From a virus (lineage: Duplodnaviria; Caudoviricetes): DNA of 64,000 bases. The notes beneath the pieces were generated by a model that did not search any database, had not been told where the DNA came from, and saw only the letters and a list, made by a program, of their open reading frames with translations. The DNA is taken from IMG/VR virus record IMGVR_UViG_3300031994_000062, positions 1-64,000 of that record; one strand, given 5' to 3'. Shown here in pieces: positions 36,095 through 64,000 of the stretch (position 1 is its first letter; each line of letters opens with the position of its first letter). Made by a program: the position numbers and the translations under genes.

Positions 36095-37508
36095 CTATTG
36101 TGTTACTCAAACCACGCGTTAAGCGATTTGAGAATTATTTATAAATGGTTTAACATAGAGATCTTCATATATGTTATACTTTCTAATTAAATACATATCA
36201 GCGTCCTTATAAAGATAATCTAATAATTTTTTAGCTTGGATTCCTCCTCCAATTGAAACTATCTTATTACTTTTATTCGGATGATAATAGATTGAACAAT
36301 GAATTTTAAGCTCGTCTTCTATAAATTCCTTAAGTCCATCCATCATTAGACCAGATCCGATAAAACTGACATGCTTATATTTGGGATTTTTAGTAATATT
36401 ACCGTCCCCATCTAGATAGCCCCTAATAAAATGCCGCATTAAACCACGATTTAGCCAAAACGGAAATTTTAAAATATGACTTTTACAAGGAACAACTCCA
36501 CATTTATTTAATGAATTAGCCATATATTTGTTATGAATTCGCAACACATACGAATTCTGCACATTTCCTTTTTTAGATGAATTATCTACAAGCACCAATG
36601 GTTTATCATAATTTAATTCTTTATTTATACTTTCGAGGATATGTTTGTCTCGCTCCTGTAAACTTAACGTAATAATATATCCTTTTTTAGATACATTTCC
36701 ATCAGCATATAATAATCCTAGTATATATGCTTTATTAGGAGTATCTATTTTATCAAAATATGTTTCATCTAAATGATATTTCTTATTAAAGTCAGTACGC
36801 TGTCGTATCTTAATCCCATTTGACTTTAGAATATTCGAAATTACTTCATGTCCTATATGCATCTCTTTACCTATCTCTTTAATGGTTTTATTGTATATAG
36901 AATACATATTTATTACTTTGTCAACTTCATCTTGAGATATTTCCCTATGCTGAACTTTTATTCCCATTCTAGTTAAAAAATTTCCAACACTTCCTGCATT
37001 TAGATTATATTTTTCAGCAATTTCTCTATTAGTAAATCCATCAAGTCTCATCTGAGCAAATTCATCTCCATGTTGTTTAAAAAACAATGCTGTTTCTGTT
37101 TTATTCATACTAATTCCTCCTAAAAATGTATAAAAAAATAAGACCATAATCGTCGCATTTAGGAGCTACGGCGAAACGGGAGCTACCCGCTGTCTGGTCT
37201 TATTATCAACAGTTAATTTATAAATAATTTTCTTATGCTTTCACATAAGTACAGACTATATCATCACCATATCTAAAAAGATTTAGGTGTCCTCCACAGG
37301 ATCCACTTGGATCGCTTAGTCGTTGAACCTTTCCCTATTCGGGACTTGGCTGCTGATTGTCCAATCTTTATAATTTTCGACATTCACGTTTGAGCATTTC
37401 ATCTCTGCGTTGTAGTTTATAAAGCTCTAAGGAGTTTCCAGCAATTCAAAGGATTCATTTGCATAATTTCTTATTGCAACGGACAATTCTAACTAAATAG
37501 TTAGTTTC
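36095..37508 (-). mobile_element. Group I intron (1414 nt), endonuclease ORF in the P9 region
   Basis: AAUUGCUGGAA, AAUCAGCAG, UCAACGACUA, GAUAUAGUCU, P2 uugca/ugcaa, P8 cacc/ggug. Junction gau|gaa gives RWLDEISYSLDN. P1 pairing is short, so the exact 5' site is less certain. Confidence 0.85.
36119..37108 (-). CDS. Intron-encoded double-motif LAGLIDADG endonuclease with N-terminal HTH
   Basis: AYILGLLYADGNV and FIRGYLDGDGNI. ATG 37108 follows aggagg. Confidence 0.9.
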   Translation of the reverse strand: MNKTETALFFKQHGDEFAQMRLDGFTNREIAEKYNLNAGSVGNFLTRMGIKVQHREISQDEVDKVINMYSIYNKTIKEIGKEMHIGHEVISNILKSNGIKIRQRTDFNKKYHLDETYFDKIDTPNKAYILGLLYADGNVSKKGYIITLSLQERDKHILESINKELNYDKPLVLVDNSSKKGNVQNSYVLRIHNKYMANSLNKCGVVPCKSHILKFPFWLNRGLMRHFIRGYLDGDGNITKNPKYKHVSFIGSGLMMDGLKEFIEDELKIHCSIYYHPNKSNKIVSIGGGIQAKKLLDYLYKDADMYLIRKYNIYEDLYVKPFINNSQIA

Positions 37509-52290: not shown

Positions 52291-52315
52291 TTTAACGCCT
52301 CCTTTTATTTTATTA

Positions 52316-52398
52316 CGCCAATACCATGATTCGAACGTGGACAACTCGAAAGTTGGACAGATTAGCAATCTGCTGAGATACCATTACTCCATATTGGC
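52316..52398 (-). tRNA. tRNA-Ser(GCU)
   Basis: Acceptor GCCAAUA/UAUUGGC, loop UU-GCU-AA, long variable arm, T-loop UUCGAAU with one T-stem mismatch. No encoded CCA. Confidence 0.85.
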
Positions 52399-52404
52399 AC
52401 ATAA

Positions 52405-52489
52405 CGACAAGCGAGGGACTTGAACCCCCAGTGCCCGAAGGCATCACCGGTTTTCAAGACCGGCTCCTTACCAATTAGGATAGCTTGCC
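52405..52489 (-). tRNA. tRNA-Ser(UGA)
   Basis: Acceptor GGCAAGC/GCUUGUC, CCGGU-CUUGAAA-ACCGG, variable arm with UUCG loop, T-loop UUCAAGU. Confidence 0.9.
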
Positions 52490-52495
52490 TAATAA

Positions 52496-52568
52496 AGCCC
52501 CAGGTAAGACTTGAACTTACAACCTGCTGATTACAAATCAGCTGCTCTGCCAATTGAGCTACTGAGGC
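52496..52568 (-). tRNA. tRNA-Thr(UGU)
   Basis: Acceptor GCCUCAG/CUGGGGC, GCUGA-UUUGUAA-UCAGC, T-loop UUCAAGU. Confidence 0.92.
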
Positions 52569-52619
52569 TGAACAGCACTATAAAAACATAGCGCCATCAC
52601 AAAAGATAAATAAACTATT

Positions 52620-59390: not shown

Positions 59391-60005
59391 TTATAAAATG
59401 TCGTAGATGGTACATCCATCTTCGCCAATAATTTTATCTACAATTCCCATCTTAGCTGCTTCGGGACTGAAAAACAGGAATTCGTCTTTTCGTCTCTCCT
59501 CGTATTCATCTTCAGTAATATTAGTTCTCTCTAATACAAGCTGCCTATCAATCTCATCAAGATCATCCATAAAGTCCATCCAGTTTCTCATACGACTTGC
59601 GGAATTAGAAAGACTTCGGCTGCTTTCATGCATTAGAAACGAAGAATGCTTCCAAGCGTATCTCTCATGACAAGCAATATATACAGAAAATGCAGCGGAT
59701 GCGACAATAGAAAACGCTACGCCAATAACTTTGGTTTGGCTTGATCTAATTACATCAACTAGATTATTCATTGTTATACATGATCCGCCTTCACTATCAA
59801 TATAAATTCTAATAGGATGACGTTTTTCAACCGGAATATCCTTATCCTCGTCGTTCCATTTAATAATATTCAAAATAACCGACTCTAAAAGCCAGTCAGA
59901 AATCTCATCATTAATTAACAATATTCTATTGTCGTAGAAATCACGAATTACCTCATCCCTAATTTCATCGTTTCCCATATCTGTTAGCGTTGATAAAAAA
60001 TCCAT
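59391..60005 (-). CDS. clpP: ClpP-family serine protease subunit
   Basis: IYIDSEGG, VASAA (Ser), FLMHE (His), EAAKMGIVDKI. Confidence 0.88.
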   Translation of the reverse strand: MDFLSTLTDMGNDEIRDEVIRDFYDNRILLINDEISDWLLESVILNIIKWNDEDKDIPVEKRHPIRIYIDSEGGSCITMNNLVDVIRSSQTKVIGVAFSIVASAAFSVYIACHERYAWKHSSFLMHESSRSLSNSASRMRNWMDFMDDLDEIDRQLVLERTNITEDEYEERRKDEFLFFSPEAAKMGIVDKIIGEDGCTIYDIL

Positions 60006-60026
60006 AATAATTTCTCCTTTTATTCC

Positions 60027-61039
60027 TTAATCTTCAAAATATTCTTTTGCAATATCGTATTTTCGTTGCAAAAAAATAGTGGCATCCTTATATAGGAAAC
60101 CACAAATTTTCTTGATATCATCTATCCGTCGATATCGAACTTGATACATTCCTGGAAGATGAGACCTAATATCCACTTTAAAATTATTTTCACCATATGA
60201 CTCTTTTAAAAGACTGTCAAAGTCTTGACAAAACTTTTTAGAGTTTTGATATACAGCAATTACTTTATCATGCTTTTTTCTACTGGCTATTGTACCATCG
60301 CCATCAACCAAGCCCCTTAAAAAATGTTTGATAAGGTGCTTTGGGACTTTTTCTTCAATATTTTTAAACGATTCAGAATTATGAGTTTTATCAGGAACTA
60401 TATCGAAAACACTTAAATCGTCAAATATTTGTTTAGAATTACAAGATTCAAACTTAACAAAATCTCCTAATCCTTTATTTGTTTCTATTTGTCGATAGTA
60501 CAAATCATTTCCACATTTTAATTCTTCGGCTAATTTTTTAACTATAGCATCGTCTTTTCTTTGCAGTTCAATTGCTAAAAAATAACCACCATTATGAATT
60601 CTAACATAACCATCGGTGTAAATAAGACCAAAAAATAAGCTTTTGCCTCTGTGTCGATAATGCTAAAATAATCATCAACAAAATTAATATTTTTCTCATC
60701 TCTTGGCATTTTGAATGTATTTAATGTTAAACCATTTTCTTTAGCTATATTAGATACGGTAGTACAAGTCGAACCTGTTAATCTAGCTATTTCAGAACTA
60801 TGCACTCCGTCCTTAACCATATTAATAATTTGTGATATCTTTTCCTCTGAGAGTTTACAATGTTTTACTTTTTTAATTTCGTTGTTGATTAAAAAATTAT
60901 TTATCGCTGGATACGACATTTCAAGGTCTCTAGAAATTGCAGATACCGTCATACCGTTTTGAAACATATCAATAATTTTTAATCCTAATTCTTCTGTAAA
61001 TGGTTTTTTACATCTTATCGGCAATTTCACTAGCTTCAC
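60027..61039 (-). pseudogene. Free-standing LAGLIDADG endonuclease with a frameshift in motif 1
   Basis: AYFL at a T6 run near 60630-60635. The -1 frame continues GLIYTDGYV... into ORF 60027..60503, which has FLRGLVDGDGTI. Confidence 0.85.
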
Positions 61040-62249
61040 TCCTATAATTATTTTTTAATTTAATACATCCAAATTTCTCATATCCCTTAAATACTTCCAT
61101 CATCCTACGCATACCCAAATGATCAATATTTACATCTGTTTGCTCGATAATGTCGCCTTCATATACCTGTTTACATCCTTCTTTACAACGTTGAATTATC
61201 GTCTTGAGCGTATAAACATCAAGATTCTGAGCTTCGCTTACTATGACCATAGAGTCTGATTCAAACTCGACGCCTCTAATATTTGCCGTTGGTATAATAT
61301 CGATCTTTCCGTCCTCAATTAATCGTTGAACTTCGATGAGATCGCCGAATTTTGAAGCAAGAATATTTCCGATAGATGCAGAATATAAAAGCTTAGTTGT
61401 ATGATCACCTTTTTCATAGCCTAAAGTCCTGGCATGTTTTAAAGGTTCAAAAGAATATACAAAATAACACTTCTTAATTTTACTTTTCTCTAATTTACTC
61501 ATAAAATAAGAAAGCGGAAGAGTAGTCTTTCCGGATCCGGCTCTCCCAAACAATAAAGTGATATCATTTTTGTCAATACTATCCATAGCACATTGCTGTA
61601 TCTGGTCAAGAGGTTTTACTTTGCCAAAATACCTTGACTGAAATGCAGTATATACAACCTTGGTATACTCACCATCGCCCCACTTATATGTGTCGATAAT
61701 TTCACCGTTGTTATTTTTCAAGATAATATATTCATTTCTGACCATGTTATAAATATTCTTGTCGAGATTAGAATAAAAATAAGCCATTTCATCATCGTTC
61801 ATAGATATAACTCTATATCCAGTATACTCATCAATATCGGCAAAATCTAAGTCCTTTGTACCGATGGTATTTAGACCAAATATCTTTCTGGCAATATGCT
61901 TGAGATTTAAATCATTAGATACAAATAAAATAGAAATCTGATGTAATTCCTGATAATAATAAGCAGAAGCAACTATAATATTGTCCGGTCCTGGCTCTAA
62001 TAGCTTCTGTTCTTTTATATATGTAAGAAGGTCAGTATTATATCCTACGACCTCATATTTATCTTCATTCTCATCGAGAAGTCTTGATATCTGACGAGCC
62101 TTATATTTCGTGGCTTCGTCTTTTCTATATGCAGTTTTTATATCTTCAATTTCCTGCAGCGTCATCTGAGAAATTAAAAAATCTTCATCAAACGCGCGAC
62201 TTTGAAGATCCAATATTGAGTTGGTATCGTAAAATTTACGACAATCCAT
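61008..62249 (-). CDS. phoH: PhoH-family protein (PIN + ATPase)
   Basis: N-terminal YDTN...PDNII...FVSNDL PIN domain, GRAGSGKT Walker A, RGVEF, VSEAQNL. Confidence 0.9.
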   Translation of the reverse strand: MDCRKFYDTNSILDLQSRAFDEDFLISQMTLQEIEDIKTAYRKDEATKYKARQISRLLDENEDKYEVVGYNTDLLTYIKEQKLLEPGPDNIIVASAYYYQELHQISILFVSNDLNLKHIARKIFGLNTIGTKDLDFADIDEYTGYRVISMNDDEMAYFYSNLDKNIYNMVRNEYIILKNNNGEIIDTYKWGDGEYTKVVYTAFQSRYFGKVKPLDQIQQCAMDSIDKNDITLLFGRAGSGKTTLPLSYFMSKLEKSKIKKCYFVYSFEPLKHARTLGYEKGDHTTKLLYSASIGNILASKFGDLIEVQRLIEDGKIDIIPTANIRGVEFESDSMVIVSEAQNLDVYTLKTIIQRCKEGCKQVYEGDIIEQTDVNIDHLGMRRMMEVFKGYEKFGCIKLKNNYRSEASEIADKM

Positions 62250-62253
62250 AAGC

Positions 62254-62433
62254 TTAATCCTCCTTAACTATGATGTCTTCTCTATACTTATAAAGCTTTT
62301 TGAGAGCACGAGGATTTTCGGTAAGATAATACCGCTTGGATTTAGATTTATGTGTTTGTGAACTAACATGAACATATTTTCCCATTTTATTTTCTCGCAA
62401 ATAGTCAGCTTCTCGTCTTGCAATTAAAATCAT
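62254..62433 (-). CDS. Small basic hypothetical protein (59 aa)
   Basis: Not in ORF track. MILIARREADYLRENK...KRYYLTE...; contains the phoH RBS at its end. Confidence 0.65.
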   Translation of the reverse strand: MILIARREADYLRENKMGKYVHVSSQTHKSKSKRYYLTENPRALKKLYKYREDIIVKED

Positions 62434-62469
62434 ACTTTCACTACTTTCTTTAATTTATTTTTTTTAAAC

Positions 62470-62490
62470 AAAAAAGGGGCATATGCCCCT
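62470..62490 (-). terminator. Intrinsic terminator closing the ncRNA region
   Basis: aggggc-atat-gcccct followed by tttttt. Confidence 0.8.
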
Positions 62491-62494
62491 ATAT

Positions 62495-63010
62495 AAAAGT
62501 TCAAAAAAGATCACCCCTGATCCTTGAACGAATTTCCCGACACAGAGTCGAACTGTGTTTCTTCCTATATAAATAGGACCACGCAGGAAGTAGGAGAGAA
62601 GAGTAGTAATCTACTCCTCGGTACTCCTTTTAATCCTTTGCTAACGCTGAGATTATGCGTTTCGCAGAAAAAACTTTACGAGCATTATGAGTTCTCTCGT
62701 TATCCACTTACTGCCGTTTCCGCACAATAAGTATTCTCTCATGGCTGCCTTTTTTATAGTGTGGCGATTCACTATTTCTACAAAGCTACTCTACCTTCCC
62801 TATTCCGTTAACGCTGCCGCGCTATAAATTCCCGCTAAGAAAACCGTGCAAGGTCCAATAAACTTATCAGAGTCTTGCGAGACTCCTCAAAGACACCATT
62901 ACATTGCTGCTGGTGTATTAAGCCACTTTCACTTTGCATAGGCACAGACTTTCGCTTTAATAATTTGATCATCTGTCTATTGTAAATAAACCCTGTATCC
63001 AATGGTTCTT
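62495..63010 (-). ncRNA. Large structured ncRNA, ROOL-like candidate
   Basis: No credible ORF. Many helices (62870-62885, 62893-62916, 62756-62775, 62707-62731) and a T-arm ACACAG-UUCGACU-CUGUGU at 62540-62558. Family name comes from recalled resemblance and size. Confidence 0.55.
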
Positions 63011-63039
63011 TTTATTTATAATATGTTTATATACATCCT

Positions 63040-63515
63040 TTGATTACGTGCTGCGCCAGTGGCTTCGTAAACTTTTGATCTACAAAATACCACACGCAAC
63101 CATGCTTTCGGCCCGTTTGCCTACTAACGTCTCATAAGCTAATGGGAAATCCCACTCACTTAATCAATGGATACCGCCCTCGCGCAACGTACACTTGGAC
63201 TGTGTGCATCCTCCTGATTCACCTTCGCATATTCGTAAGTTTGCATGAGCTATCCAGATTGCGGTCCGGAAACCTTCTCTCAGCACTTGCCGTTGATCCG
63301 GCTTATTGCTCCATACTTCATATGTTATATCCGCGCGGGATTTATATACCAGCACGAATCGCCGCCTTTTGAGCGACAGGCATGTCAGTTCTGCTTGAAT
63401 TGACCATTATACCTACAATGGCGACAAATACAAGATGTAAATATTTGCCTTTACGTAAGTCACCCTACGTTATCTGTGTCAAGCCACATTGCATAGATTT
63501 AACGTCCCTATGCAG
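63040..63515 (-). ncRNA. Large structured ncRNA, GOLLD-like candidate
   Basis: Long-range helix 63350-63360 with 63042-63053 encloses ~300 GC-richer nt. A string of hairpins lies at 63361-63514. Family name not verified. Confidence 0.5.
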
Positions 63516-63520
63516 ACGAT

Positions 63521-63591
63521 TGCTACGCCCAGGTACTGCCCCTGGTTAAGACCGGCTTATGAGGCCAGTTAAGATCTTACCTTCCGCCAGC
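63521..63591 (-). tRNA. Degenerate tRNA-Met(CAU)-like element
   Basis: Anticodon arm CUGGC-CUCAUAA-GCCGG, T-arm CCAGG-GGCAGUA-CCUGG with a non-canonical loop, bulged acceptor stem, weak D-arm. Confidence 0.5.
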
Positions 63592-63726
63592 TATGTTATT
63601 TATACTCGCCCCCTCACCAGGTAGAATAGAGGAGGTAACGGTGCGGCAAGAGAGCGAGTTTCTAAAGGAGTGTGAGTTTTATGATCTCACTTCGAGTTGA
63701 TTATATGATTAATATAAACGGCTAAT

Positions 63727-63999
63727 TTATCTTACTAATTCTTTGAAGGAATTAGCAAACTTGCACTTCGGTGCATGTTTAGCCGGGACTGTAATAGCTT
63801 CACCAGTCTGAGGATTCCTGGACTGACGTTCTGCCATGTACTTTCTACTCAGCTTAACACCATCGATAACCTGAATGTCATCGTCGTTATTCAGTGCTTC
63901 AATAACGATTTCACGGATGGCACCAACAACAACCTTGGTGTCCTTCTGTGTAAATCCTGTTTTTTCTGCAATTTTCTTAATAAAATCTGCTTTCTTCAT
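63727..63999 (-). CDS. hup: HU-family histone-like DNA-binding protein
   Basis: MKKADFIKKIAEK...RQSRNPQTGEAITVPAK...PKCKF. Confidence 0.93.
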   Translation of the reverse strand: MKKADFIKKIAEKTGFTQKDTKVVVGAIREIVIEALNNDDDIQVIDGVKLSRKYMAERQSRNPQTGEAITVPAKHAPKCKFANSFKELVR

Positions 64000-64000
64000 T

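Follow-up and report, generated by a model that had tools for sequence, protein, structure and literature searches.

Gene neighborhood of the intergenic gap

The source record is an IMG/VR virus of 85,123 bases that is ~49% complete. Its first 64 kb (64,000 nucleotides) constitute the window analyzed here, and the DNA runs containing the whole gap stretch originate from a sheep gut metagenome. Near the end of the window, the minus strand carries all genes around a long intergenic gap. One of them, at 63999..63727, encodes an HU-type DNA-binding protein (Pfam Bac_DNA_binding, E 9e-23); the others are a small basic ORF of 59 aa (62433..62254) and a PIN-PhoH fusion (62249..61008), in which PIN_4 occupies residues 8–121 and PhoH residues 211–401. 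The 59-aa ORF has no Pfam or PHROG match, and the PIN-PhoH fusion resembles the PhoH2 RNA helicase/RNase type.

Several other features lie in the same window. Two adjacent minus-strand ORFs, 60027-60503 and 60575-61039, match the C-terminal (170–303) and N-terminal (1–113) parts, respectively, of the phrog_4645 endonuclease. The downstream ORF carries a LAGLIDADG_3 domain, and the pair resembles a homing endonuclease gene that has been split or has suffered a frameshift. Just downstream is a ClpP-family protein (59391-60005, minus strand; Pfam CLP_protease, E 7e-18) with a PHROG annotation of head maturation protease. Elsewhere, the minus strand carries a group I intron at 37232-37504 (87.9 bits to RF00028) and, at 52315-52569, three clustered tRNA genes (Ser-GCT, Ser-TGA and Thr-TGT).

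The gap between the HU gene and the 59-aa ORF spans 1,293 nt (62434-63726). Consistent with the original prediction of a non-coding island, it contains no credible ORF: the longest are only 52–76 aa, and when gap ORFs were compared with Pfam, five had no match at E ≤ 0.1 and one had a chance-level match (E 0.06) below the cut-off. The predicted GC enrichment was also found, here in comparison with the flanking genes (0.39–0.49 across 62500-63700 versus 0.27–0.38). The gap is packed with helices as proposed, and on the minus strand only, the fold of 63103-63700 having z = −3.06 on this strand versus z = +0.42 on the plus strand. Read 5' to 3' on the minus strand, all five units that had been described are present. 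A tRNA-like cloverleaf (63591..63521) comes first, and the closed domain follows at 63503..~63041; the A/U-rich stretch (~63040..62955) then leads on to the second domain (~62954..62644, plus a tail), and the series ends in the strong terminator. No promoter was found in a minus-strand scan of the gap; reading of the sequence revealed a lone TATAAT (−10-like) at 63705..63700, without a −35 element.

A full-length GOLLD match on the minus strand

The gap was searched against Rfam, and GOLLD was the sole match above threshold. The RF02032 model is covered over its full length (model positions 1–416 of 416) by 63102..62644 on the minus strand, with a score of 205.4 bits (E 1.4e-56) against a gathering score of 150. 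This stretch is the conserved 3' domain of a GOLLD RNA. As is typical of GOLLD RNAs, which occur in phages or prophages in the vicinity of tRNAs, the match lies in a virus record, with tRNA relics at both ends and true tRNAs at these places in relatives. When the search was relaxed to E ≤ 10 over 62200-63800 on both strands, nothing credible besides GOLLD was obtained. Matches to SpF36, SraG, the alpha_tmRNA hairpin, SIB and CDKN2B-AS scored far under their cut-offs and were therefore dismissed as chance.

The original prediction was of two distinct giant structured RNAs placed one after the other, possibly of the GOLLD and ROOL classes, with an AT-rich spacer between them and, if so classed, suggestive of a joint RNA-based system. 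The GOLLD assignment is borne out by the 205.4-bit match, and the ROOL assignment is not: the models for ROOL (RF03087), OLE and raiA gave no match at E ≤ 10 in 62200-63800. ROOL was also absent at E ≤ 1 from the whole 85-kb record, and because the control genomes in that record-wide search likewise gave no match, the regional search at E ≤ 10 is the stronger test. Although the RNA in the window shares with ROOL the character of a large, ornate, phage-associated RNA near tRNAs, and the ability of ROOL to form RNA-only cages would be shared as well, it has no sequence or structure match to ROOL on either strand and is not a member of that class.

The position of the A/U-rich stretch also bears on the number of RNAs. 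In GOLLD RNAs, the conserved 3' and variable 5' regions are separate domains, and a disordered linker lies early in the 3' region, sometimes with tRNAs in it (PMC12286853; PMC12990946). Here, the hairpin 63102..63041 aligns to GOLLD model positions 1–62, and it is followed by ~86 nt of A/U-rich single-stranded linker (J13/15; ~63040..62955), consisting of unpaired model columns and a 26-nt insertion. Since both the hairpin and the A/U stretch align to the model in this way, the supposed spacer is internal to the GOLLD RNA and is not a boundary between two RNAs. No tRNA is found within the linker of the window copy, whereas in other IMG/VR GOLLD clades that were fetched, a tRNA is often inside the linker and a tRNA-Met is often upstream. 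The naming of the two domains in notes accompanying the original prediction proved to be reversed, in that the part labeled ROOL-like is the RF02032 match (63102..62644), and the part labeled GOLLD-like (63040-63515) is the variable 5' domain.

A tandem of GOLLD-class and ROOL-class RNAs acting together would agree with the division of the gap into two multi-helix domains around an A/U-rich stretch, and with the occurrence of both ROOL and GOLLD in phages and close to tRNAs (PMC12286853). However, this two-domain layout is the published GOLLD architecture, the spacer and its preceding hairpin fall inside a single GOLLD model match, a contig from an RNA library runs unbroken from 62693 to 63503 across the proposed boundary, and no ROOL match was seen either regionally or in the record. 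The tandem arrangement is thus extremely improbable. Because the gap appears to hold one RNA with two domains and has no ROOL match, there is no basis for a joint GOLLD and ROOL system.

The upstream region as a clade-specific 5' domain

If the gap encodes one GOLLD RNA, a variable 5' domain is expected directly upstream of the 3' domain. The region 63489..63103 is homologous (BLAST, nhmmer) to the sequence that immediately precedes the 3' domain of the GOLLD RNA in MT835469.1, a GenBank entry for a 176-kb phage from human feces. The same homology was observed in ~20 IMG/VR contigs of 113–181 kb, which fall into two sub-clades that are ~91% identical to each other; identity between the window and the MT835469 and IMG/VR loci is 63–69%. 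A third lineage, L079, carries a GOLLD match of 189.9 bits, and its 5' domain matches that of the window at 111 bits. In all three lineages, the 5' domain abuts the 3' domain in the same order and without a gap.

The homologous region also exhibits conserved structure. In an RNAalifold analysis of five sequences, 18 of the 110 predicted pairs stay paired with both sides changed. Shuffled controls gave 3.7 ± 1.7 such pairs, with none of 500 reaching the observed number, and 0–5 were obtained when the partners were displaced by one to three columns. After L079 was added to the alignment, two-sided changes with pairing kept were seen at 29 of 107 pairs, a count that comes from three lineages only and from a structure derived from that same alignment. 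RNAalifold predicts a closing helix for the 5' domain in alignment A2, but this helix is missing from the prediction for alignment A3, in which L079 is included.

When a profile of the 5' domain was compared with the 5' regions of the other GOLLD clades fetched, only their tRNA-Met was found. Because similarity to the 5' regions of other clades was not detectable, the equivalence of this domain to the cap domains of solved GOLLD structures rests on position and length. The divergence fits what is known of the GOLLD 5' region. The closed domain upstream, ~400 nt at 63503..63103 on the minus strand, is very probably the clade-specific variable 5' domain of GOLLD, or putative cap.

An alternative reading is that 63503..63103 forms a separate structured RNA, belonging to a new class, that merely travels in this phage clade with a GOLLD consisting of the 3' domain only. 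This would account for the lack of both an Rfam match and similarity to the 5' regions of other clades, and the region does have its own closing helix in A2, though not in A3. On the other hand, it is directly contiguous with the 3' domain in three lineages, its length matches that of a known 5' domain (420 nt in env-38), and a sheep contig spans the junction 63102/63103. Moreover, GOLLD 5' regions are known to diverge, being a separately folded domain (PMC12286853). An independent RNA is therefore very unlikely, and the region is better read as the 5' part of the GOLLD RNA.

Two further searches for relatives were negative: a metagenome scan with an 18-mer from the 5' domain returned eight loci, none of which is a GOLLD relative, and a viral-contig scan with PhoH peptide patterns found no relatives. 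The genes next to GOLLD could nevertheless be compared among the lineages already identified. In L079, as in the window, GOLLD is followed by a small ORF and then by PIN-PhoH. The L079 PIN-PhoH is 38% identical to that of the window, and its small ORF of 72 aa (L079:4093-4311), which occupies the same place as the 59-aa ORF, is 41% identical to it over 39 residues (E 8e-6). In the MT835469 lineage, the gene downstream of the GOLLD/tRNA block is instead a beta-CASP/RMMBL nuclease (L002:2-1297). The tie to HU and PhoH put forward in the original prediction thus holds in L079 and not in the MT835469 lineage, so it is not general. Two different RNA-nuclease-type genes, PIN-PhoH and beta-CASP/RMMBL, adjoin GOLLD in these related phages.

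Traces in RNA libraries

Parts of the stretch occur in six metatranscriptome runs belonging to two studies (sheep gut and cattle gut), and contigs from four of the six were compared with 60000-64000. In sheep, an 811-nt contig corresponds to 62693-63503 with 0 mismatches and crosses both the linker and the junction 63102/63103. A second run from the same sheep sample yielded contigs at 62789-63503 and 62617-62767, and the cattle runs yielded identical contigs at 62617-62955. In diverged cattle variants, 62958-63039 is swapped for unrelated letters, which marks the GOLLD linker as hypervariable.

A GOLLD RNA is expected to be a single molecule of ~800 nt or more. Jointly, these contigs span 63503..62617 (887 nt) as assembled sequences, which do not define a single molecule or its true ends. 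The 5' contig end at 63503 coincides with the first base of the closing helix predicted in A2 and absent from A3. The 3' contig end at 62617 recurs in both studies; it lies within the stem of the trailer hairpin described below, not at the predicted RNase P site at ~62590, and it may be either a true RNA end or a point of strain divergence. No contig covers PhoH, the small ORF, the tRNA-like flanks or 63504-63726, but contig gaps prove nothing, and these stretches were therefore not counted as support for discrete ends. Since assembled contigs give neither strand, level nor true ends, and DNA carry-over into RNA libraries is possible, they are taken as a hint, rather than proof, that the stretch is expressed in the sheep and cattle gut.

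tRNA-like elements at both ends

The region upstream of the 5' domain contains two further structured elements on the minus strand. The first is a leader hairpin (63659..63604) of 16 pairs, G-U-rich and with a 24-nt loop; on the minus strand it folds with −23.3 kcal/mol (z −3.2), compared with −13.4 kcal/mol (z +0.4) on the plus strand, and no U run follows it. The second, just downstream, is an apparently decayed tRNA-Met-like element (63591..63521) that folds as a cloverleaf on its own. It retains an undamaged anticodon arm (loop CUCAUAA) together with the D and T stems (T loop GGCAGUA), while the acceptor stem has four pairs and three mismatches of seven. ARAGORN calls this element in its relaxed mitochondrial mode only, with no call by default, and RF00005 gave no match at E ≤ 10 in 63505-63605.

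Downstream of the GOLLD model end, the minus strand carries a 3' trailer hairpin (62628..62592; −17.3 kcal/mol, z −2.75), which is followed by a tRNA-like minihelix (62589..62533). An acceptor-like stem of 6 bp, a single short hairpin and a T arm make up the minihelix, whose minimum-energy fold in isolation is a three-way junction. As read from the sequence, its T loop is the consensus UUCGACU and it has no anticodon loop. It received no default ARAGORN call, and RF00005 had no match at E ≤ 10 in 62500-62645. A relaxed ARAGORN call of this element as tRNA-Ser(CGA) reads the T arm as an anticodon arm and was rejected as a poor cloverleaf. Two terminator-like hairpins then occupy 62529..62468 (−22.6 kcal/mol, z −4.09 for the pair): a weak one at 62529..62499 with an internal U run, and the strong terminator anticipated originally, which a terminator scan placed at stem 62490..62475 followed by a U run.

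In the relatives, the corresponding places are held by tRNAs. The MT835469 lineage has a tRNA-Met on the 5' side and a tRNA-Arg 12 nt past GOLLD, after which comes the beta-CASP/RMMBL nuclease. L079 has a marginal tRNA-Met on the 5' side (37.4 bits, called by relaxed ARAGORN only) and a tRNA-Thr (66 bits) 7 nt past GOLLD, ahead of its small ORF and PIN-PhoH. In the window, the Met-like relic is on the 5' side, and the trailer hairpin and then the minihelix precede the small ORF and PIN-PhoH. Because the tRNA-Met series runs from intact (MT835469) through marginal (L079) to unrecognizable (window), the flanking tRNA-Met looks, on comparison of the three sequences, to be decaying. The tRNA on the 3' side varies among related phages as well: it is a normal tRNA-Arg(tcg) in the MT835469 sub-clade, and in the L046/L034 sub-clade relaxed ARAGORN reads a four-base anticodon (ccgt, 'Arg/Thr') 3' of GOLLD (~2404-2482 in L046). 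This tRNA is either decaying or has an enlarged anticodon loop.

Instead of decaying pseudogenes, the tRNA-like flanks could be selected mimics that stay joined to the GOLLD RNA or work together with it, perhaps as decoys or cargo. Their preserved features would favor this, as the 5' element still has the CAU anticodon loop and three of its four stems, the 3' element has a T arm of textbook form that stacks on an acceptor-like stem, and tRNAs occupy both places in every relative. However, neither element has a homologue with which conservation could be assessed (nhmmer with the 3' tail, 62465-62643, found none), and the progression from a true tRNA-Met through a marginal one (37 bits) to an unrecognizable one resembles plain decay. 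Selection for mimicry is accordingly a rather unlikely explanation, and decay of flanking tRNAs is the preferred one.

A model for the GOLLD RNA and its maturation

Together, these observations make it very probable that the gap is one minus-strand GOLLD RNA gene with two domains, whose product is predicted to be processed at tRNA-like flanks and to assemble into a cage. The precursor would most likely start just downstream of HU, or read through from HU. It would consist, in order, of a leader (hairpin and tRNA-Met relic), the ~400-nt 5' domain, the ~460-nt 3' domain with its linker, and a trailer (hairpin and tRNA-like minihelix) that ends at the terminator 62490..62475. Because tRNAs or tRNA-like folds invariably flank GOLLD in this clade, we infer that the host tRNA enzymes RNase P and RNase Z, with exonucleases, may cut the RNA from its precursor at these flanks. 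In the window, the decayed tRNAs would survive at most as cut marks. The stable product would be ~63503..62617, roughly 890 nt.

tRNA-like processing signals are known from other systems, including the mascRNA element that ends MALAT1 and the tRNA punctuation of mitochondrial transcripts. The arrangement in the window resembles that of MALAT1 and mascRNA in that a large RNA is followed directly by an acceptor/T-arm minihelix, and a cut by RNase P would make the 3' end of that RNA. It differs from mascRNA in that cleavage is only predicted here, and the predicted site lies ~28 nt beyond the 3' contig end. A more specific proposal, which we regard as tentative and probably not correct, is that GOLLD in this clade is a tRNA-punctuated module whose end folds are required and recruit host RNase P and RNase Z. 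The window copy would then have been stripped to the minimum these enzymes need, namely a cloverleaf with an anticodon arm at the 5' end and an acceptor/T-arm minihelix at the 3' end. If true, this module would be a natural minimal system for studying GOLLD RNA maturation.

Whichever way it is processed, the RNA would be expected, by homology with solved GOLLD RNAs, to form a closed homo-oligomeric RNA-only cage in which 3' domains make up the ring and 5' domains are caps that set the copy number. GOLLD cages assemble through kissing loops and A-minor contacts, with L15/L20 and L21 as contact loops. Such a cage may in turn have some role in infection. The env-38 GOLLD, an 833-nt RNA reported to lie downstream of a Met-tRNA, forms a 14-mer cage (PDB 9MEE; PMC12286853), and the Streptococcus agalactiae GOLLD forms a 12-mer (PDB 9L0R) whose 5' domain caps the assembly and fixes its stoichiometry (PMC12990946). 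Like both of these, the window copy has a full-length 3'-domain match, a ~400-nt 5' domain directly upstream and a linker after the first 3'-domain hairpin; it is also phage-borne and lies beside tRNA-type elements, with a tRNA-Met position just upstream as reported for env-38. Unlike them, it has a 5' domain specific to a clade of ~150–180-kb gut phages, decayed flanking tRNAs and a tRNA-free linker, and its cage is a prediction. Mycobacterial GOLLD RNAs are described as lying in tRNA arrays and as containing a tRNA-Phe within J13/15 (Morgado et al. 2020, as cited in PMC12990946). As far as that citation describes them, they share with the window copy a location among tRNA genes or elements and differ from it in the linker, which in the window is a plain A/U-rich stretch of ~86 nt, and in the tRNA-type elements, which here lie outside both RNA ends.

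Implications for the GOLLD class

The copy in the window leaves knowledge of the GOLLD class itself unchanged, and it adds several things to the class. Few natural RNAs besides GOLLD are known to build large RNA-only cages, and this copy contributes a new variant of the putative 5' cap domain, the domain that sets cage copy number in the published structures. It also provides an example from a ~170-kb ruminant-gut phage, with its sequence present in the RNA libraries of two independent studies. Finally, it contributes a series of lineages in which the bracketing tRNAs range from intact to unrecognizable while GOLLD is intact, and this series bears on whether neighboring tRNAs are cargo, processing marks or mere neighbors of the RNA.
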